64,000 nt of DNA from Lingula anatina. Its lineage: Eukaryota; Animalia; Brachiopoda. The DNA lies in NCBI GenBank assembly GCA_051362555.1, contig CM120649.1:15514567-15578566 (forward strand), given 5' to 3'. Below are positions 27,079-64,000 of the stretch, in pieces; the first letter of the stretch is position 1, and every line of letters begins with the position of its first letter. The notes under the pieces are model-generated. The model was given only the letters and a program-made list of their open reading frames with translations, was not told the DNA's origin and did no database searches. The translations under genes were made by a program, and so were the position numbers.

Positions 27079-28057
27079 TTGGCTGTTGTTTTGAGAATAA
27101 CTAGCTGTGAAATATAACACTTAAATGACCTACACAGTTCAGTAATTCAGCAAGGGAATACCTGTGTTTGCAAAAATAAATTCAGTTCCAACTATACTTG
27201 TCTGGTGACAAACACACAGAAGTTGTGATTAATGGGCCCAAGTGAAGCTTTACACATGGAACGATCTTGATAGAGGCATGAGTGAACTGTAAACATCAGG
27301 GCGATTTAAATCAGTCTATTTTAATTTTATTTAAAAAAATGTTATTTATGTTATAATTATAAATTTGTAAATACTTTTTATTCTCCTTAAATTGGGATGT
27401 AGGCCTAGGTTAACTCAAGGCAGTGCTCGGGGGTACATGTAGGACGTCAATCAAAGCGCTGCTTTAAGAAATTAGTAATGCTCTATAAAGTAAGGGTCAT
27501 GTCTACGTCCACTTCTTTTGTTTTAATTTAAATGACGCTATTTGGATTCCAAGAGAAATATAACTTTGCTCTTTTTTAAATAAAATCTCTATGGCGCCGT
27601 CTGTAAAAAAACATTGTTAAAGGATTAGTATCCAAAGGACGTTTTAGAACGGTCAAATGGCTTAACAAAGAAAGGGAATGAGGGGTTTATGCTTTGTTTT
27701 TGAAGCAGATTGCGTGTTGCACAGGGGAGGTTAATGGGATTCTGCCGTCTTTTGAAGCGTTTAAAATGTCTTGTTTTTTTAAATATACATGCAAGCGGGT
27801 CAGCATTGATATCTTGAAGGCACGGTATTATTTTACCTTGTTTTGAAATAAGTGAATTATTAGTCGTTATTTAACTATTTGACGTGATGAGAGAATGGAG
27901 AGAGAAGAGAACACTTTTATCGATCTCGGCTAAGAAAATTGTAATATCTCATGTTAAGGTATATATTATAATTTTATTTGGTATATGGAATCTTGACAAC
28001 AACGCAGTGTGGTACCGGGCCCGATACACTTGTATACAATTAAATAAAAACAGTTGC

Positions 28058-28128
28058 CTCCCCGACGGGGAATTGAACCCCGGTCTCCCGCGTGACAGGG
28101 GGGATACTCACCACTATACTATCGAGAA
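28058..28128 (-). pseudogene. trnD: tRNA-Asp(GTC) copy 5, probably defective
   Basis: 71 nt. It has a 1-nt deletion in the 5' anticodon stem (CCCGC loses its G) and a C2>T change in the acceptor stem. Confidence 0.75.
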
Positions 28129-36463: not shown

Positions 36464-37431
36464 AACCAAACATTGGGTCTGCTTTAGTTCGTGATTAATC
36501 CATCCTCAGCCACTTACATAAAGTACGTGGATCCGTCTGCAACATATATTACTCATATATTTATGTTCTGGTTGTTTTAAAACAGGCGCAGTATTTCATT
36601 TAGAGTCGCTACCAAGTTAGCGTGGGCCAAAGTTCGCTGAAATGTGGGTTTAAACAGTGTTTACGCTTAGGACTGTTTAATGTACAGGAATAAGTAAAGC
36701 AGTTGCTATGTGGTGTTTACGAAAAACATAACAGTCGACGAAATACACCGTTTTTTGCTTAGCCATAATGGCAAGATTTGTGACGTAATTAGTAAAAACA
36801 CAGGCGGAAAGCTGATTTCCAGCTCATGACTTTACCAGCTCATGATTTTGCCATTTAATGAGGTCAGATTTTCCAACAGGTGTGCAAGAGGCTACCGCGT
36901 CGCCTCCTGGGCAATTAACTCTCTGTCTCATCTGCAGGTGAAAGGCGGTACCTTAGTGACGACACTGAAGGGTGATAGGTCGTTTGGTGACAGGCACTCG
37001 ACAAACACCACGTCACGACTCGCTTTGCCACTGGGTTATCAGATCGCTATCACTGCCCACGGTGAAAGTAATAGCTACAGGGGATTCGAGGATATAAACA
37101 GCCGCTGCGCCGAAGGCAAAGCAGCATTTTTATATTTAAAAGTCGCCGTGACGGAGTGGACTATACCGGTTTTAGAATAGCCGAGTTGGAAAACAGGTGG
37201 TGTGACTGTCCAGACTTTCGGTAAGAATACAGCTCGGTAAGAATACAAGTACTTCCACGATACTGTGCGTTTTATACTACAGTATTGAGAGATACATATA
37301 ACACTAACCGCGTGGCGTGCTTGACGTGGAAGTTATAAATACGAGTGCCTTAGGCAGGAACAGTGAGTTTTTAGCTTCACAGACAATTCTGATTTTTCTG
37401 TTAACCACAGTGGGAAACAATCACGGCGGAT

Positions 37432-38778
37432 ATGAAGGCTTTCCTCTTTCTCGTCGCCACGCCGATTCTCCTCTTCCTTCACGGCACGGAGGGACAGACG
37501 GTCGTCCCCGATGATGTTCTCACACTTTCCACGGCAAACTTCGACTTTGCCTTGCAGCTCTACAACAAGCTGAAGGCAGGCGGTGATGGGAAGAATATAT
37601 TTTTCTCACCGGTAAGCATCTCAACGGCGTTCGCTATGCTTCACCTTGGCGCGAAGGGCAACAGTCGGAGTCAACTCGAACAGGTGCTGAAACTGGACGC
37701 ACTCAGCGGAAATAACGTTCACAAGGCATTCAAAGACCTCCACGCCCTTCTTAATTCACCGGCAACCAACGTGACCCTTCGCTCAGCCAACAGGCTCTAC
37801 GCCAGCAACAAATACGAATCGTTCAAAGACCAGTTCTTCACGGACGCCAATGAATTCTTCGGCGCCTCAGTCGAGCGAAAAGACTTTGTGGGCAAAGCAG
37901 AAGCCTCGCGCCAAGAAATTAACGGCTGGGTGGAGAAACAAACCGAGGAGAAAATTAAGGACTTGATACCAGCTGGCGGCATTACACCGGCCACCATCAT
38001 GGTGTTGGTGAACGCCATTTATTTCAAGGGATTATGGCAGGATCCCTTCAACGCCAGCTACACCACCGAAATGCCTTTCCGCACCGGCGCCGGGAGGTCG
38101 ACCAACATAAAAATGATGATGATTCCCGGCAAAACCTTCCCGTATGCCGAGTCCGCGGCACTCAAGTCAAAAGCCATTGAAATTCCATACAAGGGCACTG
38201 TTAGCATGGTAGTCGTTGTCCCCGATGACGTTGACGGACTAGCTGCCCTGGAGGCGAAGATGGATGTCACCGCAGCAAATGTGCTTCTCGACAGCTTGGG
38301 CAGGACTGATGTGAATAAGTTTTATTTTCCACAGTTCGAGCTGAAAGAGTCCCAGTACCAACTAAAATCATTTTTGACATCCATGGGGATGACCGACATC
38401 TTCGGACCAAATGCCGATCTTTCTGGGATCGGCGGCAATCCCGGGGAGTTACAAGTCGACGAAGCTATTCACAAGGCCTTTATTAAGGTTGACGAGCAAG
38501 GAACCGAAGCGGCCGCGGCTACAGCAATAACCGTCCGTCTCACCGCCCTAACTCCACAAATCGACGAGTTCAAGGTTGATAGGCCATTTTTATTCTTTAT
38601 TCGGGAGAAGATGAGCGGATCCATCTTGTTTATGGGTCGTGTTGCCAACCCCCCGCCCGTCGGGCAGCCCAGATCGAACGCCATCCGGGATGGAACGGAA
38701 ACAGACGACAAGAGTTCCGCAGCAATTTTGGTGCCGTCATGGACTCTCCTATTGGTCATTATGTGGCGAATGTTGTAA
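37432..38778 (+). CDS. Serpin with signal peptide and C-terminal GPI-anchor-like signal (448 aa, intronless CDS)
   Basis: Motifs NIFFSPVSI, INGWVEKQT, LVNAIYFKGLW, hinge EQGTEAAAAT and FKVDRPFLFFI. Hydrophobic N- and C-termini. 5'UTR intron (donors at 37221 and 37237, acceptor 37410), AATAAA at 39128. Confidence 0.96.
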   Translation: MKAFLFLVATPILLFLHGTEGQTVVPDDVLTLSTANFDFALQLYNKLKAGGDGKNIFFSPVSISTAFAMLHLGAKGNSRSQLEQVLKLDALSGNNVHKAFKDLHALLNSPATNVTLRSANRLYASNKYESFKDQFFTDANEFFGASVERKDFVGKAEASRQEINGWVEKQTEEKIKDLIPAGGITPATIMVLVNAIYFKGLWQDPFNASYTTEMPFRTGAGRSTNIKMMMIPGKTFPYAESAALKSKAIEIPYKGTVSMVVVVPDDVDGLAALEAKMDVTAANVLLDSLGRTDVNKFYFPQFELKESQYQLKSFLTSMGMTDIFGPNADLSGIGGNPGELQVDEAIHKAFIKVDEQGTEAAAATAITVRLTALTPQIDEFKVDRPFLFFIREKMSGSILFMGRVANPPPVGQPRSNAIRDGTETDDKSSAAILVPSWTLLLVIMWRML

Positions 38779-44249: not shown

Positions 44250-45625
44250 GCTCCCTTGCAGCGGATGAGGCGAACTTGACCCACAGTTTCACTAACAAGA
44301 CCGGACAGGGAGACGTCACACTGCAATTTTACAACGTGGACGAATCCCGTATAGCGGTCAACCACGTGGTCTACATTTACGAGCTTGGGCGTGGTCTTCA
44401 CACACACAGGAAGGTAATGATCTCTCCGAGGTCAATGTGACCTCAAACGGAATCTTGATCATTTGTGTTAAATGCTCATTTTTTTTTCTCGTTTCTACAG
44501 TATAAGGTAGGCTCGTAGCTAGCAATTTCAAAAGGAGGGGTCCTTCTTCTGAAAAAAAGTGGACCTTATACCCTGAAACCTTCGTGTACCTAGAAAAAAT
44601 TTTACCCAGAGGATAACTTTTCCGGCAAAAATGGTTCTTTCGAATCCCCCGAACTCCCCCTGGCTAGGGGCCTGCCTGAGATCCTCACAGCCAATACTTC
44701 AGCATGACAACAGCCCTGCTTGCCATTTGGCGTCAACTAGCTTGCATGCATTCACCAGGGGTTGTATAGTGTTGTCGTTTTTAAAGTGAAAGCCACAGGA
44801 AAACTGGTTTCCTATTGCCAGTAAGCCAGTATAAGATTAAGGGGAAAAGGCTTGCGGTTAGCTTAGTAATTTTAAATTCAGTATTTTAGATTAATTTAGA
44901 TGTGTTGCAGTTTTTAAGGTTATCAGATCCTCATGTACTTTAACAAAAATTCAAAATTGATCGTTAGCGGCCTATTTGGTACAATACCTATTTCTATCTC
45001 ATAAAAAAATGAGCTTTACACTTCATAGCCCGACTGGCCTCAACGTCATATCCACGCGTGATAGTTTTTTTAATATCTCAACTACGTTGGTTGTCTTTCG
45101 GGAAGTCTTAATATACTAAATATCAACTTTCATTCTTTTTCAAAGGAAATATATGGAATCTCCGGAATGAGGAACTACAAGATAAGTTTCAATCTCACCA
45201 ACGTCAATCTCAACAACCTCACCGACGCCATCTTGGTTTTCCCACAATTCGTCCCCCCTCCAAAGAGTTTCGACCTCAGCGCCCTGGGCGGCAATATCAA
45301 CATATCATGTGGTGTCGAAATCACACAGAGTGTCGGCAGCGTCCAGGGTGTCTATTTCAAACGCTACAAAGTCCGCTCTGGCTGGACGAATTTGAACGAG
45401 TTAACCGCCATGGTCTATAGAGAGACCCTGTCCAATGGAAGGTTTGTCATGTTGGAGTTGAAAAACATCGAGGACAGGGACACCGGTTATTACAGTTGTG
45501 GGGCAGATACCATACAGGCAGTTCAGAATACCGAGGGAACGATGGAATTTAACGTCCTAGTGAAGGCGGAGACTTTGACAAAAATCCGATACGTAGGTCC
45601 CAAGTTTCTTCCTCCTCGGGGTTAG
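44250..45625 (+). CDS. Single immunoglobulin-domain protein, probably secreted (5' end unresolved)
   Basis: Exons 44250-44413 and 45146-45625 join in phase 0. Ig signature NINISC...MLELKNIEDRDTGYYSC, no TM segment before the stop, several N-x-S/T sites. Candidate first exon 42718/42759-42771. Confidence 0.75.
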
Positions 45626-46294
45626 ATGTCAGAACGAACTTTTGAGGAATTCAGGGACTTGCTGAGAATGTTTTGTATAAATATCTTGAGTGAAAGATAC
45701 ATGTTGCAAGGGCAAGTATTTGCAACGACAGTTTCTAGGAAATACGCACAGTAACTGCAGTTAAATTTGAATTTCAATTTTAACATTGATAAAGGCACTG
45801 AGATAGACCAAGCCCTGAACAAGGCTGGTAAACCAGAAACTGCAGAACTGTAGAGCAATGTAAGTGCTCGGAATCTCTGTCCATATCTTGGTTCATATAA
45901 GAGACAAGGAAGCAACAAATGCTGCAGCACTGAAGCATGTGAGTGATGGTGAGTTTTCCATACTTACTCAATTAATATCATGCTCCTCAAATACTGAAAA
46001 TATCTGTAGCGAGAGCTACATCGCAAACAGAAACATTTTCTTTGCAAAGCCAGGATGAGGTCGACACTTAATTTTTGGTAACAGTTCGAGGCGACACCTT
46101 TAAGGCAGTTCTTAGCAACTGTCTCTCCGTACTCTTACATGTACAAGTAATTTTTATATCAAATGTATGTGGTTGTATACTTGATAAAAACTTAAACACT
46201 CAAGATTTTATACATTAGCGCTTTGTCTTGAAAAGAAATTAACCTCAACTTAGGTAAACACCTCCTTAGACGGGCTACTTCATAAGGAATGTAA

Positions 46295-46509
46295 GGCTGT
46301 ATTCCCAGAGCTTTTAGATCGATCTATCCCCGCGGGGAGTCTCACTAGATTACTGTCAGAAAATCCGGCTTAAATGTCCGTCCCGCCTACTACAAGCTGT
46401 AAGGGGGTAATTATCTTTCGTGTCCGCTCGGCTGACAGCTATTTAGCGTGAACCCCCAGGGAGTTAGGTCGATCTAAAGTAGATCGATATAATCTCTGGA
46501 AATGGGGTC
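46295..46509. mobile_element. MITE family B-related copy with TAA target duplication
   Basis: TAA|GGCTGTATTCC...GGAAATGGGGTC|TAA. Its interior matches the half-copies at 52730-52854 and 53801-53927. Confidence 0.65.
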
Positions 46510-46911
46510 TAAGACTGCATTTCAGTTTGTCACGGCGATTTGATTTTCTAAGTACGTATCTAGGTTTTTACGTAAATTCATTTTGTTAGAAAAATAGTAT
46601 CATGGGTAAGTATCAAGGACAAAGACAAGGAAACGTTTCGGATAAGTAGTGCACATACCAACAAAGTTTTATTCATATCATTCAGTTTTTTTAACGTTCC
46701 TTATATACAAAATTGTAGTGTCGTCAATGCGATGATAATACCGGTACAAATTGAGTAATTTCATCTTCATATGCTGTTTATGTAGAACCCATAGGTATAT
46801 GTGAGGAAATAATAATTACTCATTAAATTGTGATGGTCAATTACTTTATTACGTCCGGTCATTTTGTGTTGCATAATTTGTGGCATGTGGCATCTCTCGT
46901 GAAAGAGACAT

Positions 46912-49900
46912 CTATCGACCAGGTGCAGGGCAGACTGGAAAATAATACACAAACTGCTGTAAACTAATTACTTCCTAGCACTTTCAACTTTTTTCTATAA
47001 TGCTTTAAAAATGTACATAGCCATATTTAGTTCCAGCGGCAAATATTAGTACACGTACACTGTATCTCCGAATAATCTTTAATTTTCAAACATTTTCTTT
47101 GAAATATTTTGAAAAACTGAATTTAAAGTTTTTTTGCATTATCAAAGACCTGTACAAACCTTGTGTTCTTTCGACGAACACACCTATCTGGCTATTTCTA
47201 TTGAACTTGTACTTGAAGAGCATGGTGCAGTCGTCGTCAGTCCGAAAACGACACATAAAGCCACGCGGTCGGCCTGAAAGGTTGTTATCAATAAATTAAA
47301 CCAAAGAATATAAGTTGAAAAATGTTGAGTTAATTGTCACTAGTGTAGTACAACAAATACTAGATTATGAATAATGCAATTAGGGCTACACACATAACAC
47401 ATCAAGAATTACTAACGTGAAAAAAGAGAAAAAATTGCATCAGAACAACATCATCCATACCCATAAACACAACATACCGTGAATGCATATTAGTTTTATA
47501 ATATCAATAATTTGTTTTTATACACACAAATACGAGCAAATGTGTATGCACCTTCTCAAAGAGACAGGTCTGCTGCACTCTCTGTGGTATGACTACAAAT
47601 ACATTGAACTGTACGGGGTCACTAATTACGTGCTTATTGCCATTAAAACAGTTTGACCAACATAAATAAATGTATTTCTTTAAATAAGAAAATTAATGAT
47701 AAATATCTAACCTGCAATTATTATGCCCATTATGCCCAGATTTGGAAACACCCTCAGGCCACGGTTGCACAAAAAATCTGAAGTCAGATTCATGGCTAAG
47801 AACTTAATTTCCAACGTTGCATACTCACATGCACATATCTCACCCTATCAGGAACAGTGTAACAGCACTCTCATGGGAATTCTAGTCAACTATGCCAGGG
47901 CCTCGACTTAAGTTTTTTTGTGAAACTGGGGCCAGGTTTCCATCTACCCTCACCTGCCACGCTGTCCACTACTCTGATATTATATTTGCGGCAGTCCCGT
48001 GCGTACTCCTCCTGATTCAAAGGTCCTCCAAGTCCCAGCATAAACTGAACACACGCCTTCAGCACCTGGCATTTATCTGGACAAGTCTGGGAAGAGATAA
48101 ATCGTGGTTTTGATTTACTAAATACATTCAGTCAGTTAGTCGTGTCAATCGTCGGTTAGTTGGTCAGGCCCCTATTTCACACAGACCACGAATCCCACGA
48201 ATCGCCAGGAATTGACAAATTTTAGGATTCGTGAGGATTCGTGAGATTTTGCCAATTTTCTGGTCTAATTCGACACGCTCACGATTCATTTACGATACAG
48301 GTACGATAGTATTACGAATATTCGTGGGATTCGGCTGGAATCGCACGAATATTGTCCAGAAATTCACTACGATTTTTTGGAATCGGGAGTTCGTGGTCAA
48401 AACTATGAACAGCTCAAAATTTTTGCCACGAATTCCTGTTGGTCAAGAAGTGCAAGAACTGACTACGAATATATATGAATCTGTTAAGAACTTCACGAAC
48501 TGATTACGATTCAACCACGAATCCTGAAATTTTCAATACCTGGCGATTCGTGGGATTCGTGGTCTGTGTGAAATAGGGGCATCATATAATCAGTCTATCA
48601 GTCGGCTAGTCGAGTTGGAAGTCAGTCTAGCATCCTGTTAGCCGGTTAATTAGTCAGTCAATCATTCGATCAATCGGTTATTCGGGAGGACGGCTGGTCA
48701 GTCTGCAGACGATCAAACATGCCAACCAACCAACCAACTTACCAACCAGCCTTCAAGGATACCAACCAACTCATTGACCGGAAATTACCTCGAATATTAA
48801 CTAAAACATAGAATCGAATTCCAAAATATTTTACAAAAAGTATTTAAATGTCAATTTCTGACCATCAAATATCAGTATGCATTAAGTCTTATTTGATAAT
48901 CAAGCTGATTAATATGAGAGTTAAAAATAATTGCAAACTATTTTCGACATAAGTTTTACTTACTGGGCAGTCCTCACACGTGGGTCCGAAGTAATAGGAA
49001 TCCCGCTCACACCTACACTTTCCACATTCGCACTGGCCTTTTCCATTGCATATTTTCTTCAAGAGTGAATAAATTAATAAATATAAGCGGGAAGTATATA
49101 CGTTTTTAAAGTAATTATTGGCTTTTGAATTAAGAAAACCTGAATCTGAAATAAATCACAAAAGGTTTCTCCTGCGTTTGCTTTTATGAAGTAATTACGA
49201 CAATTTCTTTCAAAACGGCACTCAACCTTCTACTCTCAAGGCTGTGGACACTATGAAGATTGAATTCAAAAGCATGACCACCTTAAAGTTATAGATGACA
49301 CATTCTCAGTTTAATCCGTGCCACTCTTTAGAAAATACAAAAGGCAGGTAGGATTATTCTGCGTTGGTGTTAAAATATAAGTGTTTATATGAATACATGG
49401 GTTATTAATAAACTAAAAAAATGTTTTTTTTAGTTGAACGGGGAACCAATAAAACTAGTTAAGAATTGGTGTAGAGTGTATACCCTTTACTTTCGATAAA
49501 AACTAACGTTCGCAACCCACTGTTGGCGCTTTCTACAACGCTTAAGAAATATCACCTTTTGTATTGCACGTAGCCTTTTCCGGAACGCTTTAAAATAGCT
49601 TAATTAAATACTTGTGGTCAGTGAACACTTAATATTTTATCTCAATCACTCTTAGGCAGGCTACTCCACAAAATGTGAAAATCTGCGGCACGTCAGTAAA
49701 GTACACTATTTGTGTAAAGTTTGCATAATTGTGATTTCCCCCATTATAATCGATGTTTTGTACTATTATACTTCAATATGAAGTAAATCCACAGGTTTTA
49801 AAGCCAGATATAAAACAGTTACACAAGTGTCACACAAAATGAGTGCATCATTGGCCATAACGCGAGTCAAATGTTTAGTCATTTTGTGATATCTTACCCC

Positions 49901-50802
49901 ATTGCTGGCGACACAAGCACTTTGTGATAGAGGGCACTCGCATGCTTCACCAGTGAACCCTTGCTGACACTCACACACCCCGCATTCACATCGGCCTCGG
50001 TCTGGTCCACCACAAATTTTCTATAAAAAGTTATATTAGAATATACGAATGCGATCACATATTAAAAATATTTGAATAATTGCTGTCCAACAAACGCAAG
50101 CAGGAGTACAGTATTTAATGAACTAAATCTTAATCAAGACACATATTAATGGAAAAGGGACATTTAACAAGCTAGCGGTCTGGATAACAGCATTACTGAG
50201 GCTTTATATTACTTGCCACGGCTGCCCTACCCCGTTGCTATAGGAACAGGTGACTGAGGAGCATTGACAACTGTCTCCATAGAAACCTGGCTGACATGCG
50301 CAATGGCCACAAATACACTCGCCATTTCCTGAAACATGGTATGGATTTCATGGTAACGAGGCCAATGCTTAGATATTATGTTGATCTAAATTCAAAAATA
50401 TATTCAATATATAAATAAATGAATAAAGAACGAACATGTGTCTTTATTCAATGCAATAATATGTCTTTTAAAAGAAAAACATATCTGTAAGCCATCAGAA
50501 TTGATTAGACTCTCAAAGTGGAAAGGTGGAAAGAATGGGCAAATATTCATTCCCAAGATGTCGTAAACCTGGTGTAACGGGGCTTTATCAACACTTGGGC
50601 CTTGTACTCTTCCAGGGGCAGATCCAGAGAAATTTTCTGACAGTCTTCCGAATTATCTTTGTTGATTCATCCTCCATTTTTGACCGTCTTCCGACAGAAA
50701 AAATTAGACACCCGTCAATGTAAACTCGAAAATCTGACCGTCTTCCAGAAGACCCAGAAGACGGCCTAAATCCGCCCCTGTCTTCAACTGGATAGACTGA
50801 GT

Positions 50803-50846
<44 letters not shown>

Positions 50847-51385
50847 GCAGAGAGAGAGAGAGAAAGAGAGAGAGGCAGAGAGAGAGTGAATCACTGTCTA
50901 GTCAATCCAATCTCTGCAGAAAATATAGTCTCCTGCAGGAAATTGTGATATTGCGCACTGCACTCAGCAGTATATAGGCCTACATTAGTATATAGATCTG
51001 GATTGGCTGAGACACGTGTGTGTGTGCATGTGTATGTTAATGTGTGTGTGTGTGTGAGTGTGTGTATGTGTTTACCTCCACACTCTATTCCCCTATTTTC
51101 CGGGCAACTCCCAGCATCCTCCTCGCACTTGTATTTCGAGGCTGCAATAAAAATTAGACGTCAAAATCAAATCATGGAGGGGTCACCCACACAAGCTGTG
51201 CTGAATGCTCTGAAGAAACAGTAAAACACATCGATTCTTATATCATAAATGATGTCAATGACGTCTACGCAAAATTATTCTCTTAATTCTATTCCTTACG
51301 CGAAACGAAAAAAATAATTACCCTGGATCGGGACAACAGCAGCGGCGAGAAGACACCCAAGTAGCAACATTCTCATAACACGCAT
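46912..51385 (-). CDS. Secreted integrin-beta stalk-like protein: signal peptide + integrin EGF repeats + beta-tail domain, no head or TM (237 aa)
   Basis: Exons 51385-51322, 51141-51076, 50328-50231, 50020-49898, 49056-48964, 48086-47954, 47273-47160 and 46934-46912. All introns are GT-AG with compatible phases, 714 nt in total. Motifs [55 protein letters not shown] and CRFRTDDDC, ending VCPAPGR-stop. Confidence 0.88.
48167..48581. mobile_element. Young Harbinger-type MITE in an intron of the integrin-like gene
   Basis: About 65-bp near-perfect TIRs (GGCCCCTATTTCACACAGACCACGAATCCCACGAATCGCCAGG...), TCA duplicated on both sides, internal (C/T)ACGAAT motifs. Confidence 0.9.
50613..50780. mobile_element. 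Short non-autonomous DNA element with a 5-bp TSD
   Basis: TCTTC|CAGGGGCAGAT...ATCCGCCCCTG|TCTTC. Confidence 0.65.
50806..50886. repeat. (TG)n(AG)n compound microsatellite
   Basis: Direct reading. Confidence 0.9.
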
Positions 51386-54140
51386 AACTGCAAAATGTAG
51401 TCATGGCGTGTTACCCATGTACATATACTACTACTGCTCCGGAAATCGGGCACTATTTGGTTCACTTGAATCAGTTGGTAACAGGATAAGGCCAATGAAT
51501 AATCTATTTGGCATACGGCACACTTAAATTGAGAGGTGCATCTCATCAGCACCCCCCTAATGTTTTACCCTTTAAAAAGGGAAAAACCCAATTGTTATAG
51601 TACATTCCGAGTAGAAATGAGAAGAAAAGCTTGACCTAACCGTAAGACGTGATGCCTTATATGCATACGAAACATGGAAATCAGCTTTTATCAACAAAGC
51701 CGTCCTTGCTGCCCTTTAAAAAATCCAGCGTCTTCAATAGCCACTACAAGTACTTTTCGTATCAGCAGCATAACCCACGTTTCAAGGTCCGTTAGTTTAA
51801 CTTAAAATAAAAAAGAAGAAGTAGAATATCAACGCTTGTAATTTGAGTTCCATGTCAGACAGCTTATTACAGCCGTATAAACATTTAACACTTTTTAAAG
51901 ATGTAATTCTATATTTTATTCAGTTTTGTCTTTTCTACATACGGTAATTTTGTCCACTGAAAGTAAAGCATGAACAATTAATTTTGTGTCCGTTTTTCTG
52001 TCTCCTCGGTGAAGAGCCGTGTAACACTCATAAAATGATCAGCCTTAAACACTAGTCCATGTAACTGGAAACCAACCTTCAAGGAAATTTGTGCAATTTA
52101 GTTTGATATTTCAATTTCCTACGTTTTATCATCCCCTTTTAAATTAGGAAATGACAGTGGATAGAGAAGTAACTGACATAACGGAGCATCTAAGTTCATT
52201 CGCTTTCAACTTTGCATGACATCTACTCTTAAACCTAGATTATATTTGCCGTGTGATGTCTGCACGATGCTCTTATACTGCCCGTTACGGTTACGGATTC
52301 TCGTCGGCCATTTGCCCAGTATTCCCGCGCTTATCACACGTCCGCCGCTCATTGTCCGCTTATTGCCCATGGAATTGCACGTTTATCGAACAATCATCTG
52401 ACGGGTACAGCGCGACAAGCGCAAGCTGCCACTCAATCGCCTTGCAATTTTCATACGGTTTATTAAAAGGCACTATTTGCATTCTCCACGACACATCATC
52501 ACAACCTCACAAAATGTCACAACCAATGAGGCTTAGGGAAGTGAGACTCAGATTAGAATTAAGAAAAGAGAGCAGAACTAAGCAGGAGCTAGTGACATCT
52601 CTTGCCTTTACAGAAAACCAGAAGGCCGGACAGAGGGGCGGAAGTAACCCTGGGCCAGTACGACACCCTCATGCAGGAGCTGATGCGAGGCTTATAAATG
52701 TCTCTGACGCCTACCGATTCAGCTTGGGGTAAAGATAATTACCTCCTAACAGTTTTACTAGAAGCGACAGACGCTTAAGTCGGCCAGTTTGATAGCAATT
52801 TAGTGAGACTCCCCAGGCAGATAGATCGATCCAAATATATGTGGGAATGGTCCCTTATATTGGATGACAAACCAGTATGGAGGCCTACCAATTCATGTAA
52901 ACGACCTGATTTTTATTTTTCACATAGTTTCATTATTAATTGTCTCATCGAGTAGATTCACTCATGGGTCACTGATTACGAATACAATTGTAGAATTGAT
53001 TATATCATAATAAGTACATCAGTATCTAAAGACCGGTATAAAAACCAAAGTGATGGAGTAGGCCCTACTATCTTAACATTTAAGTGCACATTCGCACTGA
53101 TGTGACATGATATCATTGAAAACCACTCTCTATCTTGCTGATTCAACCTACGGATTAAAGCCACTGTAGATGCTCTCAATGCACATTTCTGGCTAAATAA
53201 CAATCACTCTAGTTTTATCAATATAGATTATCATCATAGCCATTTTGATGTCCTTGGCTTTGATATCCGCCCATTTTCAATTGTTTAAAAGAAGAATGTC
53301 TTAATTATCGACTTTGTATCAGTCTGTATCATATGATAACATGGCGACCTACCAAAAAGTAGGCGTATGCGTGCACTTAGCGCAATTTAACCATTTTCAA
53401 TTGTTTAAAGAGGCATGCACTTTAGACTTTGAATCAAAAGCTTTTATCAAAATACCTTCAAACCTGCACAGCGACTGGCCCAAAAGGTATCAGTAGGCGT
53501 GTTTGCGCATGCAACGTATTTTATAAACTGTCAGCCGTGAAATCAGGTGATACTGTAGCGGTGACATTGCTGTGAACATCAGATTAACACACGTAAGTTC
53601 AAAATCATAATATGATCAAAGTCTGCAATGATGAGTTGATATACAGTAAGTCATAGTATGTGTGTATGAGGGGCAGACGTGTGCTGATAACGAATGTAAA
53701 CTTATGGCATTGGATGATTTCACGTCTGCGGCTACTTAAGATGCATGGTGAAAATATGGTGGTTGTTTTTTTACGAAAGGCTTTAAAAATATAAAGGTTA
53801 GGGACCATTCCGACAGATATGTGGATCGATCTATCGCCCTGAGGAGTCTCACTAAATTGCTGTCTACTTAACCGGCTTTAAAGCCTGTCACGCCTAGTAA
53901 AGCTGTTGGGGGGTAATTGTCTTTTCCCATATATAATTTGGAGAAGAAAACTTCATTTTGTCAGCATTGGAGTTTATATCAATAAATACTATGTTGCGTT
54001 TTACAGCTGATGAAACACGTTTTTAAAACGGCTCGAATAATCATTTTCGGTTTTGTAACGTGTCGCAGATACGCTTGATAATATATATTGCCAAAATTAA
54101 GACCTATAAGTATTGTTTCTTGTGTATTTTTTCGTTATTG

Positions 54141-54839: not shown

Positions 54840-57760
54840 AACGCGTAAAAGACCGAAATAAATTTATATGTTGCTCATGTTTCATACTTCTACTATACAC
54901 ACTGTATATACACAGTGTATTTTGGTTTGTCCTTACACACACATTGAACTTGCGTCATGAGATATTTAATCTAACATATTCAAACAAATGTATTTTGCTA
55001 AATAGGAAGACTTTTTTTAGTCACGATGAAAATCGCTGCGCACGCATAGATCGGTTTTATGTTTCATAGTTTACTTTCGTGTGAGTGCGTGTGTGTGTGT
55101 GTGTGTGTGGGCATCAGGGTGGGGGACGTAGAGTTGTTGACAGGTACCAGAATGTACATGTACATGTGCCCTTTTTACTGTGGACATTTTCATTATCAAA
55201 ATTTACCCATTTCTTACTAGATTAGCCACAAAAGACTATAACAGATCACCCATAAATTTAAAGTCAATTAATAGGAAAATGCACATAAACACATAAAAAC
55301 ATAACAGCCATAAAAACACACATTAATAAATTCCCCTGCACTCATTGACCCCGCTGACTTTTCAGACAAAATAAGAGAAGAAAATAATAAAAGAACAGAA
55401 AAGAACAGAGAATATGTAAAAATAAAAGAACAGAGAATATGTAAAATATGTAAATTAAGGGACTCTGTGGATGTTCTCTTGTCGTGTGCTCATCTTGTGT
55501 GTTGCAATCCATGCACTCCCTCTCTCCGAAAATGCCCAGTTTGTGTTATAAGCTATCTATGCTAGCTTGGCTCCCCTGACGAGTCCCCATGGACGAAACA
55601 CAAAAGTTGAGCAGACGGCAGGAAAACTGCCGACAATTCTCTTTTTGTGTCGATGTACAGTTCCAATGCACCAACGACTACCAAAAAAAAAAAGAAAAAA
55701 AAAAAAAAAGATTTTAACTGTCTTTTTTTTTTGCATAAAATCGTTCACTATTCTCAAGGATATGGTTTGAGAATATGTGATGAAAATCGATAAAAGCTAA
55801 ATGAGAAAAAAGAGATTATTACAGCTATCATTTGATTAAGAGGAGAATATGTTGAACTTCATTGTAGCTGATTAAAGGTAATTAGCACAGTGCACAGAAC
55901 CAGATGACAATGTTCATTGTTCTGATATAATCTTGGCTGTAGCATAGGTGCATAGGTCGATCACCATTTCAAGTAGAGCCAAAGGGCAAACACTGCCTGA
56001 TCTTATTTTCACGATATGTTTGTTTTGGTGATGTATTAACTTTATATATCATCCATTATCGTACCTACTGTACAAACGGGTACCAGGTCATTCATGTGAT
56101 ACGGAGAGAAATCGCATCATTTTAATGCAAGACACGATTGAAGGTATCTCAGGCAAATTTTATTATTGTCGCATCTCAGAAACTTTCAACACTACAAGTA
56201 TTTTCCTATCGGATCATAGCTAAAAACAAGTATGCTACACTACAATTATACAATTTTGAATGCTCATTTTAAGGAAACAAAACAAGATTGTCTTTACCAC
56301 ATTTTGAATTCCCCAATGAACAAACATATCAAATTCTCACATAGCTTCCAAATTGATAGAACACATTGCACTCATCTTTATAAGTTTATTGTTTCATCCG
56401 CCCGAAGGACCTCGTCACGTTATCGCCATCTACCTGTCGAAATGACACAAAAAGTCATCGACAACCGCCATATGCTCGCTACCTGTACTGGAGGTCACTT
56501 GCCCGAATACACATGGTTTCACGAAGAGCTCGCTCTAAGCTGATTATCCTCTGATCTTGCTCCGCGTTTCTAGTCCCTTCGTTGTTATGTACAAGCCAAG
56601 GTAAATGTACCAGTATATCCCGCGCTTATAGCGCAAAAGAATTATACAAATATCCTATCACTTGATTATGTACCTTTTTCTGTAAGGTTCAAAACAGGGT
56701 GGCACATGACCCTGTCAGACTTTGATATAAATCGGTGTATTTGTTCATTATAGCCCCAAACAAGCGTAATGAATATTGGTTAGTTTGAATCAGCTTCAGT
56801 TACCGTGGTAACAGCACTTGAAAATTACCACCCGATTTCGGTTGTATTTTAGCTTATAAACCATAAAGGCGGATAAATAAAACATTTTTTCATTTTCAGA
56901 CATTGTTAAATATCACATCCTAATTGAACTAAAACACATAATTGTTTTTGCTTGCCTTTAAAAATAAGAAATATATCTTCAAAAATGGTTAATTTTCAAA
57001 AATTGAAATTTTTGCTTAAGTCCCCAAGTTTGCAGTCTTTCTTGTTTGACAGAGATTAAGGCATCTTCTCTGCATAATAGCATATTATATGATTACTTAT
57101 TATGGTGTCAGCACTTTTGTCACTTACTTAAAATACCTGCATATATTTTCTTTCATTCTCTTTGCCCTGAGATATTTATAATTTCGGTTATTTTTTAATA
57201 TTTGTTTTTGAATTTATTCGTAAGAATATCGGGTGTAAGTAAAGTCCATTGGTAACCAGCTACAAAATCAGAGGTTGTGATGTCATAGAAAAGCAGTTAT
57301 CAATGTTAAGCGTGCCCTTTGCCCCATCATGATAGTATTTGGTGTTTTCTCTGCCTCAGCGCTGAGTACTAAATCAATGTTACAATCAGGTAGAAAGTAA
57401 TATTACAACAGTTTCCCATAACACTTTGGTTATGTTAAGTGAAAAGTCAAGTCAACTGCTAGTTTTCAGTATAGAAGTGTGAGAAAAACTTATCCTTACC
57501 GGTAGCAGGCATTCGAAAATATGTCCCTGGAAGGTTGTAAGCGACCGCAATAAAATAGGCGTAGGATGGTAGTCTATTTGGGCCAACGCCTTTTTTCATA
57601 ATTTGTCATGCATGCCTTCTAAATATAATGATCATAAATCATCATATTTTAGAAAAAGAGAGCATACATTTCATTTGTTGGCAAGATTTTACACTAATTG
57701 TTAAGGTTTACATACGCCACGTATTTTAAACTTACGAAACAACAACAACAACAACAATAA

Positions 57761-57791
<31 letters not shown>

Positions 57792-59088
57792 ATGATGCTG
57801 GTGGAAATCACTTTGCGGGTTGTTGCAACCGGTCGCCGACCTCTTTGCAACTACTGGTAACAGTTGCGAATCGTAAAGAGGTTTTGACGTTTTTTTGCGT
57901 GACTGTTACCGCACATGCCTTGCGACCTCAAAGAGATCAAGTATTAAAACAAGAAAATATTAAGGGTATTCTAAGATTAATAAGGATAAAAACATTCAAA
58001 ATTTTGTTTTTCATAACAGCACTGGTTTCGTTAGACGAGGGTGTAGTCTGTTCAAAAGTTCGTTAAACATTGCTGGTTCTATTCTTAGGAAGGAAATGAT
58101 GTATTCCTAGTTTTCAAGTTCAAGTTCTTTCATTATTTGTTCGTAATCGCCATACAAGGGGCGTCTTGCAATCCACGCTCTAACGTAGTATTTCCGAGTT
58201 TTTTTATCCTCTCAAGTAAACAAAGCTAGCTAAGGATAAGTGCCGTCACCACGGTCCCATCTTTTTGAAATGCAGCCATTTTACTAGACCTTTTTTTGTC
58301 TTCTGAGAGGGGAATTCATGAGAAAGCAGCTACCGTCACAAGTTGGCAACATATATATTATGTGCGACCTTGCTGCTAACAGTTGGCTAGCGACCTGCAA
58401 CCTGTTTTTAATCACCAAGTGGTGTTAATCGCTCGGCAAACTAAAAAAAAGTGCGACTGGTAACTTAAAGCTTGAAGATGGTCTATACGAGGTTGCAGAT
58501 ACCATATTGCAACCTTATTGCAATCGGTTTGCGACAGCTTGCCGATAAAAATATGTCATAGGTCCTTAATTAGCCCGCAAAGTGATCGCAAGCGACGACC
58601 AATTTTTGCGGTTACAAACAGATTGCCAAAATGTGACAAGCGCAGTGTGACCCAGGTTTAACAATGCCCAAGCGTAACTGAACACTACACATGCAGGGAC
58701 ATCCACATCATCACTGCCACTCTTTGACTGTGTACCATTTCACCTTTTCTTTAATATTTTTGCTTAAACTTAATACTGACAACAAACGGTTGATATGATT
58801 CTCTGGCGGGGAATCCTTTCTTTTATATGACATCTCTGGCATGCATACCTTCTAAACAACTCTGTCAGTCTGGATATTATTGGCCAAAATATATCACAAC
58901 AGAAGAACAGAAGATATTTTCATCACTCAAAAATAAGCATGATAAAAAGATATTCCATATTTACTCCGTAGATTGTTAAAAAAAACAACTATATCTTAAT
59001 GAAACTTGTAGTGATATATTTTGTTTTTACCTTACCTTAAATGGAAATGTCTTGATGAACCTTTTACACCATCTTGTCATTTTTGCAG

Positions 59089-62000
59089 ATGGCACAAATG
59101 GTTAGCTCGGTGACTGCACGAAAAAGGAAAGAAAACCATTTCCGCATGCAACTTTCACTGGATCTTGCAAACGACGTACTTCGAGATGTTCTCAATAACC
59201 AGTTACAGTCACGATACCCGGGGCTGTTTGGAGCATCAAGTAATGGTGACATATCTGGTGTCCTAAATGACCCAACAGTGAAACATAACTTGCTCAGCTT
59301 AAAAGTGAAGAAAATTTTGAATCCCAGTCAAATGAAAATTCTCTACCCTCCTGGGAGCCCCGCCCCTCCTGTCAAACTGCAGGACTTGGATATTGCCCTG
59401 GCCGTAGTTTTGTTAAGAAATATCACCCACCTGAATCCTCGTGCAAGATGGGACAATCCTCCAGCAACGGACACATCAACTGAGGCCAACATCGGCAGGG
59501 TGAAGGGGTACCGCAACAAAAACGCTCATGGAACAGGCCTCTCAGACGCAGACTTCCAGAGTCAGTTTACTGATCTGAAAGCTACCCTGCTGTCTCTGTC
59601 GTCACTGTATACTAGCGATGAGTACAACAAGTTGCTGACTCAGTCACTGGAAATCTCAGGTGAATCTCTGCTCAAATACTTCTCAAATACTTAATATTTT
59701 GCATCTATGCAACCAGGGCTAATAAAGAAGAATACAATTGTGTATAAGTATCTATTCAAATTTATAAATCACAAGCATAAACAATTACAATTATGCTAAT
59801 TCTATATTCTACAGACTTCAAATTTAATATGGAATATATTTTCCAAATCATTTTTCATCAGTTTTTTCTGTTGTGCTGACTAAATGAAAATAAGGATTAA
59901 AATAGTGTTTTAATGACTTTTAATTATCTCAGATGTCACGGCGACATCAGTTCATTAATTGAATTCGCCTGTAGAGCACACAGAAATACATTGTTCTATG
60001 TCACACGCCATCCATATTTTGGACCTCCATATTTTCTAAATTATCCTCCGTAAAAGAGTTACACGCTCCACAAAGGACCCTCATGCCAGTGTCTAGTCAC
60101 AGCAACGGTCGCTGTTACGCCTGACATCTGGCTCCTACCAGCTCTCTCAAGCGGCAAGGGACTCCTTGGGATAGGCCTTTAGAGTTCAATCTGAATAAAC
60201 ATTTCAGGCATCAGTCAAAACTTGTCCAATCTGGTACAGTTTTGTTGTAGGATATGAAGGCCGTTGATTCGGCGAGTAATGGCCTACCCATATATTGTCT
60301 ATATAATTCAACAATGGTTCAATTTTGATTGCCAAGGTAGCTGCTCATTCCCTTGGTTTTGTAAGTTATCTGCTATTAAACGTGCTCTGTGCGAACCGGC
60401 AATCTCATCGTGCAACCTAAAATTGTTTCTAAGGCGCACCCTATCAAATGATAGTCAAGAGGTTCCCAGATTATTCCTTTATTTGATCTGGTTCAGGTTT
60501 TCGTTAATGACTAACTCTGGTGTATATGGTATGTACTCCAAACACTGACGCGGTCAATGACCCTTGTCACTTTAGACGCGTCACACGCTTCGTTGTAGGT
60601 CTGTAAACTCTATTTTGACTGGTAGGGCGATACAGGTGAAATCTGACCTCAATAAAGAAAGCCACGTGGTTTCAGTGTTCTACACAGGACCGCTCATGGC
60701 CCCCAATTTATTAGGGAAGCAGATGACGATGTTTTGCTGTTTACAGTGGGTTCATCGGAAGTCGTCTGGTATACAAACCTTTAAAAACCAGGTTTGGTTT
60801 TAGCTAGAGACTTTGAAATACGCGTTTTTGTGGCAATTTATCCCTCTTTCTGAATAGACTGGATGGTTTTTGTTTAGTTGCAGTAGCATATTCCGACAGA
60901 CAGTGGGTCCTGTACCCTGTTAGTAAGATTTCGATACACTGGATGTGATCTCTGTGTTGGTCCATCAGTCTGGGCATTACTCTATAAACCTCTGCGGACC
61001 GTTCTGTCTGGCGCTATGATCTGTCTGGCGATGTCTGTCTTTTTCGCGCCATTCTGCCACAGATTAACAAAATTGTAAAGCACTGCTTAGCTCATTTTAC
61101 GCACTGCAAAAACGACTACTTCTTCTATGCAATTCTTCTATGCAGTAGTTGCCAACATATGGATGCTTTTTTGACAGAACCAAGCTTTGACGAGTCCAAA
61201 GGAGCACTACCAAATTAAATCACTGGATATTACTTAGTGCAGCAGCGCAACGGTTTATTGGTAGCGCCACATTTGACTTCACACTTCTCCATTCACATAT
61301 CTTATATGAGATCGGAGTTTTTTTTAAAGAACGCATTTTTACCTAGGCATACCTGAAATATTCCTGAAATATTCCATATTAAATTTCAAGTCTGTCATAA
61401 CACTCTAATGTGACAACATCACTGACAAACGAGAAGTTTATATGTACTGTTACCCCAAGGGCAAAAATGCGATGACAATTTTCAGTGTTCTTTTCAGAAA
61501 CTCCTTGCCAGCTGCTGTCCACTGCGTTACCAAGAATAAGCACAGAGCTGAAGGGACGTGATGACCTTATTGCTACCATACACCAACATATCAGAGATGA
61601 AACTAAACTCATTCTCCTGACCGGGATGGGGGGTATTGGTAAGACCAGCTTAGCAGTTAAGGTCGGAAAAAGCATGCAAAATGTGCTGTACATTGATATG
61701 AGGCAAGTTACAGACCTTAACTCTATCAAGTTATCGTTTGTCCAACACTATCACCCAACGCGCCCTTTGAAAGATTTATACTCTGATTATGAAAACATAT
61801 TCAAACAGATTTTGTCTGGTTTGACTACAGATACATTACTTATCCTCGATAATAACGACTCCATTATCAGTTCAAATAGACAAGAGTTTAGTGATTTTTT
61901 GAAAGATGTAATGAATTCAACACACCATCTTACTTTGTTATGTACCAGTCGTGAAAAGTTTGATTTCACAACACATAACGTAGCTGTGTTAGACATTCCT

Positions 62001-64000
62001 CCAGTTGATAAAACTTCTTCACGTGAAATCATGTGGGAAAGAAAATCAACCAGTCCCACGGGCAGTGAGTTAGAGACATTAGATGAAATGGCAGAATTGT
62101 GTGGCCATAGCCCCCTTGCTTTAAAACTGCTAGCTGCATTACTTGATATGAAACCAACAGAAGCAGTTTTAGAGAAAATGAAGACTCAAAAGATATTATG
62201 CACTCTTTCCATTCCCAGTATGCCAGACGAAATAAGATTTTGTTTTGATATTTCTTTTGAAACATTAGAACCCGAGACAAGAAAAGTGTTCCTTGCACTG
62301 CATATATTCCCCGTTGCTTTTACTCTCAAAGAAGTCTCTGATATTTTAGGATTAGACCCAAATGATTGCGAACATGTCCTTGACAGCCTTGCCGACAAAT
62401 CACTCATTAGTGCTGATAATTATATCTATGATATCCACCCCTTAGTTAGGGAATATGCAGAATTCAATGCCCAGAATTCTGACATTGACATTTTTGAAAT
62501 TCAACGTGCCTATTGCAGTTATTATATAAAAGCTTTCAAAGTGCTTAAATTCAAAGATGTTGGTGCTTCAAAGACAAACATTTTGTCACATATAAAACAT
62601 ACTGCTGCCTTACTTATCAAACATTTAGAAACCCAAGAGGTTTCTGAAAAACTTGAAACTACAGACAAATTAACAGGGATTGCAAACGCACTCTGTGAAT
62701 TTTATCTATATAAAGATGCTCTAAACATAAGCAAGGTGGTGGCAAATGAAAGGGAGGTACTGCAAGGTCCCAAACACCCTGAAACTGCCTCTTTCTACAA
62801 CAATATTGGCTGGGTACTGCAGGCTATGGGTGAGTATAAAGAGGCACTTGATTATCATAATAAAAGCCTGGCAATGCAAGAGGAGACACTTGGTCCCAAA
62901 CACGCTGATACTGCCGACTCTTACGGCAATATTGGCGGCATACTATGGAAAATGGGTGAGTATAAAAAGGCGCTTGATTATCTCAAAAAATGTCTTGCAG
63001 TGAGAGAGGAGATACTCGGTCCCAAACACCCTGATACTGCCTCCACATACAACAATTTTGGAATTGTCCTGAGTGACATGGGTGAGTATCAAGCAGCGCT
63101 TGATTATCATAATAAATGTCTTGCAGTGAGAGAGGAGAAACTCGGTCCCAACCACCGTGATACTGTCTCCTCTTACAACAATATTGGAAATGTACTGCAA
63201 CCCATGGGTGAGTACAAAAAGGCACTTGATTGTTACAATAAATGTCTTGAAGTGAGAGAGAAGATGCTGGGCCCCAACCACCCTGATACTGCCGACTTCT
63301 ACAACAATATTGGTAGTGTGCTGCAAGACATGGGTGAGTATAAAAAGGCACTTGGTTTTTACAATAAATGTACTGCAGTGAGAGAGCAGTTCCTCGGCCC
63401 CAACCACCCTAATACCCTCGACTGCTACAACAATATGGGTAATGTACTGGCACACATGGGTGAGTATAAAAAGGCGCTTGATTCTTACAATAAATGTCTT
63501 GAAGGGAGAGAGAAGATGCTTGGCCCCAACCACCCCGCTACTGCGAACTCCTACAATAACATCGGTAGTGTACTGTCACGCATGGGTGAGTATACAAAGG
63601 CACTTAGTTTTTACAATAAATGTCTTGAAGTGAGAGAGCAGTTGCTCGGCCCCAACCACCCTAATACCCTCGACTGCTACAACAATATTGGCAATGTACT
63701 GGCACGCATGGGTGAGTATAAAAAGGCGCTTGATTATCACACAAAGTGTCTTGAAGTGAAAGAGGAGATACTGGGTCATAACCACCCTGCTACTGCCATC
63801 TGTTACAACAATATTGGTAGTGTCCTACAGGATATGGGTGAGTATAAAGAGGCACTTGACTCTTACAATAAATGTCTTGCAATAGAAGAAAAGATACTCA
63901 GCCCCAACCACCCTGATACCGCCACCTGCTACAACAATATTGGTGGTGTACTGCAGGCCATGGGTGAGTATAAAAAGGCGTTTGATTATTACCATAAATG
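59089..64000 (+). CDS. HEPN (DZIP3-like) - NB-ARC/AP-ATPase - TPR repeat protein (NLR-like STAND), 3'-truncated by the window
   Basis: Exon 59089-59659 (LYPP...DLDIALAVVLLRNI...WDNPPATDTSTEANIGRVKGYRNKNAH) splices in phase 1 to exon 61498->64000, which is open to the window end. It contains Walker A GMGGIGKT (61623-61646), Walker B LLILDN, TSR, CGHSPLAL, IHPLVREYA and then 42-aa TPR repeats. Confidence 0.9.
62766..64000 (+). repeat. Coding tandem array of at least ten 126-bp (42-aa) TPR units
   Basis: Units start at 62766 + 126n. Consensus GPNHPDTAxxYNNIGxVLxxMGEYKKALDYYNKCLxVREExL. Confidence 0.95.

Follow-up and report, generated by a model that had tools for sequence, protein, structure and literature searches.

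A putative stand-alone integrin beta lower leg, headless, anchorless and predicted to be secreted, in the brachiopod Lingula anatina

Can the stalk of an integrin beta chain exist as a gene product of its own, without the ligand-binding head and the membrane anchor? This question is raised by a locus of Lingula anatina within a stretch of 64,000 nucleotides of contig CM120649.1 (assembly GCA_051362555.1, positions 15,514,567 to 15,578,566), which is referred to below as the window and in which all coordinates are given. A first-pass annotation, made from the sequence alone, described an eight-exon gene in which a signal-peptide exon splices straight into integrin-type EGF (I-EGF) repeats and a beta-tail domain. 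It proposed that the product is a distinct secreted integrin derivative, e.g. a decoy, an alpha-leg binder or a component of the matrix. Our analysis supports a product that consists of the integrin beta lower leg alone, headless, anchorless and predicted to be secreted.

The gene lies on the minus strand (51385-46912) and its eight exons join, as drawn in the first-pass annotation, to one open frame of 237 amino acids (aa) ending CPAPGR-stop. All seven introns are of the GT-AG type, the exon phases are compatible throughout and the intron lengths are, from first to last, 180, 747, 210, 841, 877, 680 and 225 bp. The parts of the gene, ending with the putative 3' untranslated region (UTR), are as follows:

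51322..51385, minus strand: exon 1, with the start codon, the predicted signal peptide (aa 1-21) and a phase-1 donor; same start in XP_013418143.1
51142..51321, minus strand: intron 1, 180 bp, no match to a head-domain model
51076..51141, minus strand: exon 2, beginning of I-EGF2; its knee loop is short, with 6 residues separating the first two Cys
50231..50328, minus strand: exon 3, remainder of I-EGF2 and beginning of I-EGF3; RNA joint to exon 4
49898..50020, minus strand: exon 4, I-EGF3 and beginning of I-EGF4; RNA joint to exon 5
48964..49056, minus strand: exon 5, I-EGF4 (Pfam EGF_2, E 2.6e-7); RNA joint to exon 6
47954..48086, minus strand: exon 6, N-terminal half of the beta-tail domain; joined to exon 7 in RNA reads
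47160..47273, minus strand: exon 7, C-terminal half of the beta-tail domain (Pfam Integrin_B_tail, E 5e-4, under the cut-off); RNA joint to exon 8
46912..46934, minus strand: coding part of exon 8, final beta-tail Cys, then TAG at the expected start of the transmembrane (TM) helix
46745..46911, minus strand: 3' UTR, putative extent, with AATAAA at 46850 and reads at 46898 and 46874

The 5' end (exons 1-2) is independently supported, since a 121-aa RefSeq model from L. anatina (XP_013418143.1; P0001) starts at the same Met and has the same signal-to-EGF junction. This supports the direct connection of the signal exon to the EGF repeats. The RefSeq model is identical to ours at 107 of 117 residues and runs off after exon 4. 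The acceptor of exon 5 is an AAG at 49056, which is confirmed by the RNA joint 49898/49056. Exon 4, P0001 and an alignment served as queries in homologue searches; neither these nor a representative search revealed a full-length 237-aa record of the gene. A canonical splice acceptor (51387-51400, minus strand; AG 2 nt ahead of the ATG) adjoins the start codon, so that a 5' UTR exon further upstream is possible.

The N-terminus of the protein is hydrophobic (11-residue mean 2.83) and, judged by hydropathy, composition and inspection, forms a predicted signal peptide with cleavage near residue 22. Three I-EGF repeats follow at aa 29-67, 70-107 and 110-151, and the beta-tail domain at aa 153-233. 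In an alignment with full integrin betas the repeats fall on I-EGF2, 3 and 4, colinear through the beta-tail. Repeats 2 and 3 score highest on our EGF3 and EGF4 models respectively; repeat 1 is EGF2 by alignment position, with its top score on the EGF3 model. The beta-tail domain, already recognised by eye, reached 35 bits with a hidden Markov model (HMM) from 19 complete integrin betas and 32 bits (E 8.6e-10) with one from 8 full integrins. Pfam, run on separate exons, detected EGF_2 in exons 3-5, with the curated cut-off exceeded by exon 5 only, and Integrin_B_tail under the cut-off in exon 6 (E 0.05) and exon 7; exon 6 alone had no match in the PDB at E 1 (phmmer).

There are 33 Cys in the 237 codons, one in the leader and 32 in the mature chain. 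At two beta-tail positions the Lingula protein has Phe163 and Tyr176 where the other aligned rows have Cys; we take these two Cys to be one disulfide pair in integrins. RGD and KGD motifs are absent from the protein, as are N-glycosylation sites. Its stop codon aligns with the first turn of the TM helix of full integrins, in agreement with the claim that CPAPGR marks the start of that helix. After residue 22 neither a TM helix nor a glycosylphosphatidylinositol (GPI) signal was found (best 19-residue hydropathy mean 0.94), and a GPI anchor in the Lingula copy was rejected on this value. In the available text of PMC2733745, the lower leg of the beta chain comprises IE2-4 and the beta-tail, and the knee lies where IE1 meets IE2. 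Because its boundaries match this definition, the Lingula protein corresponds to the lower leg from knee to membrane.

Comparison with complete integrin betas showed that the Lingula protein matches the order and Cys spacing of three I-EGFs and the beta-tail, with 35-42% identity over the leg. In contrast to an integrin beta, it has neither PSI, hybrid and betaI (vWA, with the metal ion-dependent adhesion site, MIDAS) domains nor I-EGF1, a TM segment or an NPxY tail. It carries three I-EGFs, aligned to I-EGF2-4, where an integrin beta has four, and it has lost the beta-tail Cys pair and has a short knee loop. Membership in the integrin beta family was rejected on the missing betaI, PSI, hybrid, TM and NPxY parts and on the three EGFs.

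To look for such parts elsewhere, 13 domain HMMs from the 19 complete integrin betas were run on 3892 six-frame pieces of the window. EGF and beta-tail were the sole classes matching the gene. In these pieces no match of the PSI, hybrid, betaI or cytoplasmic model fell below E 0.11, and the top match of the TM model (E 0.017) lies at 10.9 kb, 36 kb from the gene. Matches in a tblastn search with the same 19 proteins were confined to 47.3-50.4 kb of the window. In the vicinity of the gene, a motif scan and the 13 HMMs revealed no exon for a head, TM or cytoplasmic part, and the 3' UTR (46745..46911) contains no hydrophobic frame beyond the stop codon. Intron 1, which had been considered too short for PSI, betaI and hybrid domains, has the length given and no match to a head model. 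Within the window, the absence of betaI exons upstream and of a TM exon downstream is thus borne out.

The splicing of the gene was analysed in four public Lingula-labelled RNA runs (X1, X4, X7, X9) mapped to 46000-50450, i.e. exons 3-8; joints, loose ends and differences are those listed, beyond which there are 43 joints, 588 loose ends and 465 differences. In X7 and X9, which belong to one study, read depth is limited to exons and repeats, and introns 3-7 are spliced as drawn. Intron 3 is supported by 20 reads in X7 and 27 in X9, intron 4 by 31 and 36, intron 5 by 18 and 16, intron 6 by 9 and 9, and intron 7 by 7 reads in X9 with one substitution beside the joint. The latter is the 47160/46934 junction that the first-pass annotation had pointed out for a check by RNA. 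Depth is about 40-fold on exon 4 in both runs, and reads extend past the stop codon (at 46898, 14 in X7 and 14 in X9; at 46874, 4 and 11). Most reads are 90-95% alike to the window, i.e. roughly 5-10% different, and may therefore stem from another population or a close paralogue.

Two repeats in the mapped region are also covered by reads. A MITE-like (miniature inverted-repeat transposable element) sequence at 48168-48580 in intron 5, with 54-nt inverted ends that are 94% complementary, has repeat-derived reads in all four runs. A dispersed repeat just downstream of the gene (46300-46510) shows RNA depth in the thousands, again in all four runs; related copies are located at 52727-52855 and 53800-53928.

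The eight exons might form the inner part of a longer gene, with head or TM/GPI exons in other isoforms, which we regard as improbable. The AG acceptor directly before the ATG, the mapping over exons 3-8, the GPI-like ends of relatives, and the 43 joints and 588 loose ends beyond those listed, which make minor isoforms possible, would suit this explanation; however, the domain models found nothing nearby, the RefSeq model begins at the same Met, and exon 8 with the UTR carries about 14 reads against 19-26 on exon 7.

Differences between reads and window were sorted by hand from the codons into silent and replacement changes. Among the 40 listed (465 more exist), a best-supported subset mixing polymorphism and divergence, 20 are coding, 12 of them silent and 8 replacements. 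Omega as estimated from these listed differences is 0.18-0.25 (P 0.0002-0.002, assuming 21-27% silent sites). Compared with P0001 there are 10 differences in 117 aa, none at a Cys. The expectation that the gene does not evolve neutrally stands for the listed differences as a whole, with omega around 0.2; 7 of the 8 listed replacements are found in the beta-tail domain.

These data make it very improbable that the gene is a remnant of a duplicated integrin beta gene that is still transcribed but has no function or is decaying. A paralogue as the source of the divergent reads, the two beta-tail Cys that are gone and the lack of junction reads in X1 and X4 could be explained in this way, but not readily the depth on exon 4 in X7 and X9, the silent excess, the retention of all Cys compared with P0001 and an architecture that is repeated in other phyla. 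The open, phase-compatible exons had from the beginning been held against a decayed pseudogene. On the open exons, splicing, silent excess and conserved Cys, a pseudogene was rejected.

The secreted protein ITGBL1 of vertebrates is similar to the Lingula protein in having a signal peptide (predicted in Lingula) followed by I-EGF repeats without head or anchor. ITGBL1 sequences from two rays (P0178, P0179) showed ten I-EGF repeats and no beta-tail match, as had been stated for ITGBL1, whereas the Lingula protein has three repeats and a beta-tail; membership in ITGBL1 was rejected on both counts. BLAST of the EGF part against 14 subjects ranked Ruditapes (164 bits) and Capitella (144) first, both headless proteins, followed by an amphioxus integrin beta (139) and Cherax (137), with ray ITGBL1 last (107). 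ITGBL1 ranks below headless lophotrochozoan proteins and full integrins, and the sequences give no sign of orthology with it. Zebrafish beta1tr-1 to -3 are truncated beta1 paralogues, for which secreted antagonist roles were proposed in the accessible part of PMC1538996. They resemble the Lingula gene as expressed, gene-level truncations of an integrin beta duplicate without TM and cytoplasmic domains. Their layout is the reverse, however: the head, with PSI, hybrid and A (betaI) domains, is still present and the chain stops just after EGF4, whereas the Lingula protein is headless and keeps the beta-tail.

Is the Lingula gene the only one of its kind? We classified 271 sequences (270 fetched and our gene model), of which 144 had a beta-tail match. 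A crude signal peptide without betaI or cytoplasmic tail was found in 23 of the 144, namely the model and 22 records forming 16 clusters. The clusters named, 13 of the 16, are from Mya, Mizuhopecten, Ylistrum, Pecten, Argopecten, Mytilus, Solemya, Haliotis, Penaeus indicus, P. vannamei, Cherax, krill and Xiphophorus. Records from Octopus, Antennarius, Lottia, Capitella, Ruditapes and Mercenaria are without betaI and TM and fail the signal filter. Headless, TM-less beta-tail proteins are thus annotated in clams, scallops, mussels, snails, octopus, Capitella, shrimp, crayfish, krill and teleosts. Examples are:

XP_052817260.1, Mya arenaria: signal straight to EGF2-4 and beta-tail, acidic linker, hydrophobic end
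XP_021360936.1, Mizuhopecten: headless record
XP_053636560.1, Cherax: headless record
XP_069973095.1, Penaeus vannamei: headless record
XP_046562643.1, Haliotis: headless record
ELU12111.1, Capitella: headless record
XP_009044231.1, Lottia: headless record
CAI9716324.1, Octopus: headless record

These relatives are database gene models; misprediction is unlikely, because the architecture is conserved across four scallops and five Mytilus species. Like the Lingula protein, they have no betaI, integrin TM or cytoplasmic tail and carry the beta-tail at or near the C-terminus. PSI and hybrid are kept and betaI is excised in Haliotis, Solemya, Octopus, Mytilus and teleosts, and PSI alone is kept of the head in Capitella. 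Scallops have EGF1-4 and a beta-tail with a GPI-like end, Cherax and krill EGF2-4 and a beta-tail after a low-complexity spacer, and Penaeus tandem whole legs. The same cut at the knee recurs in Mya, Cherax, krill and Penaeus, and the signal-EGF2-4-beta-tail core of the Mya protein is identical in layout to that of Lingula. Many headless relatives keep PSI and hybrid, add EGFs, repeat the leg or carry a GPI-like tail; the Lingula form does not and is, as judged from predicted architectures, the minimal soluble one among the headless proteins compared.

Uniqueness to Lingula was therefore rejected. The distinct secreted integrin derivative of the first-pass annotation holds in that the protein differs from ITGBL1; it is, however, one member of a widespread class and not a one-off. 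Our searches revealed no description of a secreted, betaI-less, beta-tail-bearing integrin derivative in the full-text literature, including the available part of PMC4030831, most subscription papers being outside this scope; the accessible text of PMC7148315, PMC9168380, PMC9835746 and PMC13425148 contained nothing relevant. Apparently, the Lingula protein is a new variant of a stand-alone integrin stalk and the class is undescribed.

Teleost proteins named 'integrin beta-1-like' (P0182, P0186, P0188, P0044) contain PSI, hybrid, four EGFs and a beta-tail and are without betaI and TM. By their predicted architecture they are a vertebrate headless class apart from ITGBL1 and the zebrafish beta1tr forms. 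Penaeus P0005 and P0015 consist of tandem I-EGF2-4 and beta-tail units that are very near to the full-length integrin of Scylla.

Did these headless forms arise once? Trees were calculated for the leg region (208 columns, LG+G4 without mixture); the rows of a 33-row tree were picked after viewing an 89-row tree and include neither ITGBL1 nor a full Lingula integrin. The trees are poorly resolved and no well-supported branch contains the Lingula protein; its pairing with Mya has a support of 40/32. The Penaeus headless units, in contrast, group with the full-length Scylla integrin with support 100/99. A single clade of all 17 headless rows was rejected by the approximately unbiased test (p-AU 0.0002), and without Penaeus p was 0.05; a clade of the 12 lophotrochozoan-type headless rows including the Lingula protein was not rejected (p-AU 0.23), yet not recovered, all p-values being indicative. 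In these sequence comparisons headless forms are seen to have arisen more than once, the Penaeus leg-only units being a recent independent origin, and the Lingula gene likely belongs to an old lophotrochozoan headless family. In its history a duplicated integrin beta gene would have lost the head exons, so that the signal exon now connects with the knee in phase 1, and would have acquired a stop at the start of the former TM stretch.

Because no full-length 237-aa record was found, structure was predicted for the Mya protein (P0034) as a proxy. The AlphaFold model has a mean predicted local distance difference test score (pLDDT) of 78.6 and a predicted template modelling score (pTM) of 0.47. 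In a comparison with the PDB integrin beta chains rank first (best E 7e-18); the root-mean-square deviation from full legs is high because the rod flexes. The model confirms the predicted fold class of the relative and says nothing on function. A search of the ESM Atlas with a Penaeus leg unit retrieved ITGBL1 clusters at 0.87-0.88, a lead only, and integrin betas by structure; it revealed no cluster of the headless beta-tail class.

What could a free integrin leg do? With slightly less than even confidence, we favour a role as a soluble extracellular modulator of integrins, by analogy with ITGBL1, which according to the available text of PMC8921176 is secreted and inhibits the activation of integrins. 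Without betaI there would be no MIDAS, no RGD-type ligand binding and no main alpha/beta head interface, and without TM segment and tail no signalling. The surfaces kept would be those that, in a bent integrin, contact thigh and calf-2 on the alpha chain and hybrid and betaI on the beta chain. PMC2733745, as far as its text is available, describes IE2-thigh, IE3-hybrid, beta-tail-hybrid/betaA and beta-tail-calf-2 contacts that stabilise the inactive state. A free copy of the leg would attach in trans to the same sites of integrins on the cell surface and shift the balance between bent and extended forms, most likely damping adhesion.

Several observations weigh against such a modulator. Some of the leg contacts are described as modest or minor in cis in the accessible part of PMC2733745, so that binding in trans may be weak, and the loop at the knee, which takes part in the IE2-thigh contact, is short in the Lingula protein. 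ITGBL1 is an analogy only, as the architecture speaks against orthology and the Lingula EGFs score 107 bits on ray ITGBL1 against 139 on the amphioxus integrin. The concentration of replacements in the beta-tail would be easier to reconcile with relaxed or diversifying selection than with a conserved surface for integrin binding. Finally, X1 and X4 had no reads at the joints of the gene and at most 2 reads on any listed exon place.

Restricted expression would also suit a secreted disulfide-rich rod with a role unrelated to integrins, i.e. a matrix, mucus or body-fluid protein or the ligand of another receptor, in which the beta-tail would have become a new end for binding. We consider this possible but rather doubtful. 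Relatives vary in a scaffold-like manner in EGF number, tandem legs and GPI-like ends (P0013, P0015, P0081, P0161), and Lingula shuffles EGF domains into matrix proteins (available text of PMC4595640). On the other hand, a keyword search of two Lingula shell-proteome supplements (PMC4595640, PMC13425148) returned full integrin alpha and beta entries or unrelated matches only and no leg-only entry, although one under another name could be missed, so that the idea of a shell-matrix protein gains no support from it, and the missing RGD/KGD motif and N-glycosylation site do not speak for such a rod either.

The replacements in the beta-tail are what an immune or haemolymph decoy might show, a soluble leg absorbing microbial adhesins, proteases or host enzymes aimed at the integrin leg. 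The antagonist roles suggested for the truncated zebrafish beta1 paralogues (PMC1538996, in part) point in the same direction, and the serpin, Ig-like and HEPN_DZIP3 neighbours described below are a weak hint. As overall omega is low and the accessible text of an H. pylori paper (PMC2779590) contains no microbial protein requiring the beta-tail, a decoy appears unlikely.

The flanks of the gene are plus-strand coding stretches, an Ig-like frame and a RING exon; these and the other features observed in the window are:

45074-45625, plus strand: Ig-like open reading frame of 183 codons that runs towards the 3' end of the gene; its similarity to V-set/Ig is weak (E 0.014)
55314-55565, plus strand: C3HC4 RING exon (E 1.2e-7), of a type which we take to end IAP-like or MIB-like ligases
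37405-38778, plus strand: single-exon serpin (Pfam Serpin, E 5.5e-118), possibly surface-anchored; its N-terminus looks like a signal peptide, and a hydrophobic extension at the C-terminus resembles a GPI signal
22703-24196, minus strand: single-exon sugar transporter (Pfam Sugar_tr, E 4.6e-92), intronless and possibly a retrogene
24507-28128, minus strand: dispersed array of five tRNA-Asp(GTC) genes
59059-64000, plus strand: HEPN_DZIP3 exon (E 7e-34) and, at 62769-64000, a tandem array of about 10 copies of 126 bp with a TPR-like unit; both may belong to a single immune-type gene that continues beyond the end of the window

What does a stand-alone leg mean for the integrin family? Surveys that screen by a betaI HMM and a TM helix miss headless genes, as was the case in an oyster survey according to its accessible text (PMC7390872). 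In databases such genes are labelled 'integrin beta-like', 'tenascin-X-like' or 'ITGBL1'. The class shows stepwise intermediates, with betaI lost, then PSI and hybrid, then EGF1, which bears on the origin of ITGBL1-type proteins. A natural, expressed minimal lower leg would be a reagent for asking whether leg contacts regulate integrins in trans. It is conceivable, though we hold it only tentatively, that animals have repeatedly made headless, unanchored or GPI-anchored integrin-leg genes, in an old lophotrochozoan family and with separate decapod and teleost origins, and that these are unrecognised endogenous allosteric regulators acting at the knee and leg contacts of integrins, with Lingula having the minimal form. 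If the function is unrelated to integrins, the class would still be a clear example of how an adhesion receptor is repeatedly recycled by domain loss.

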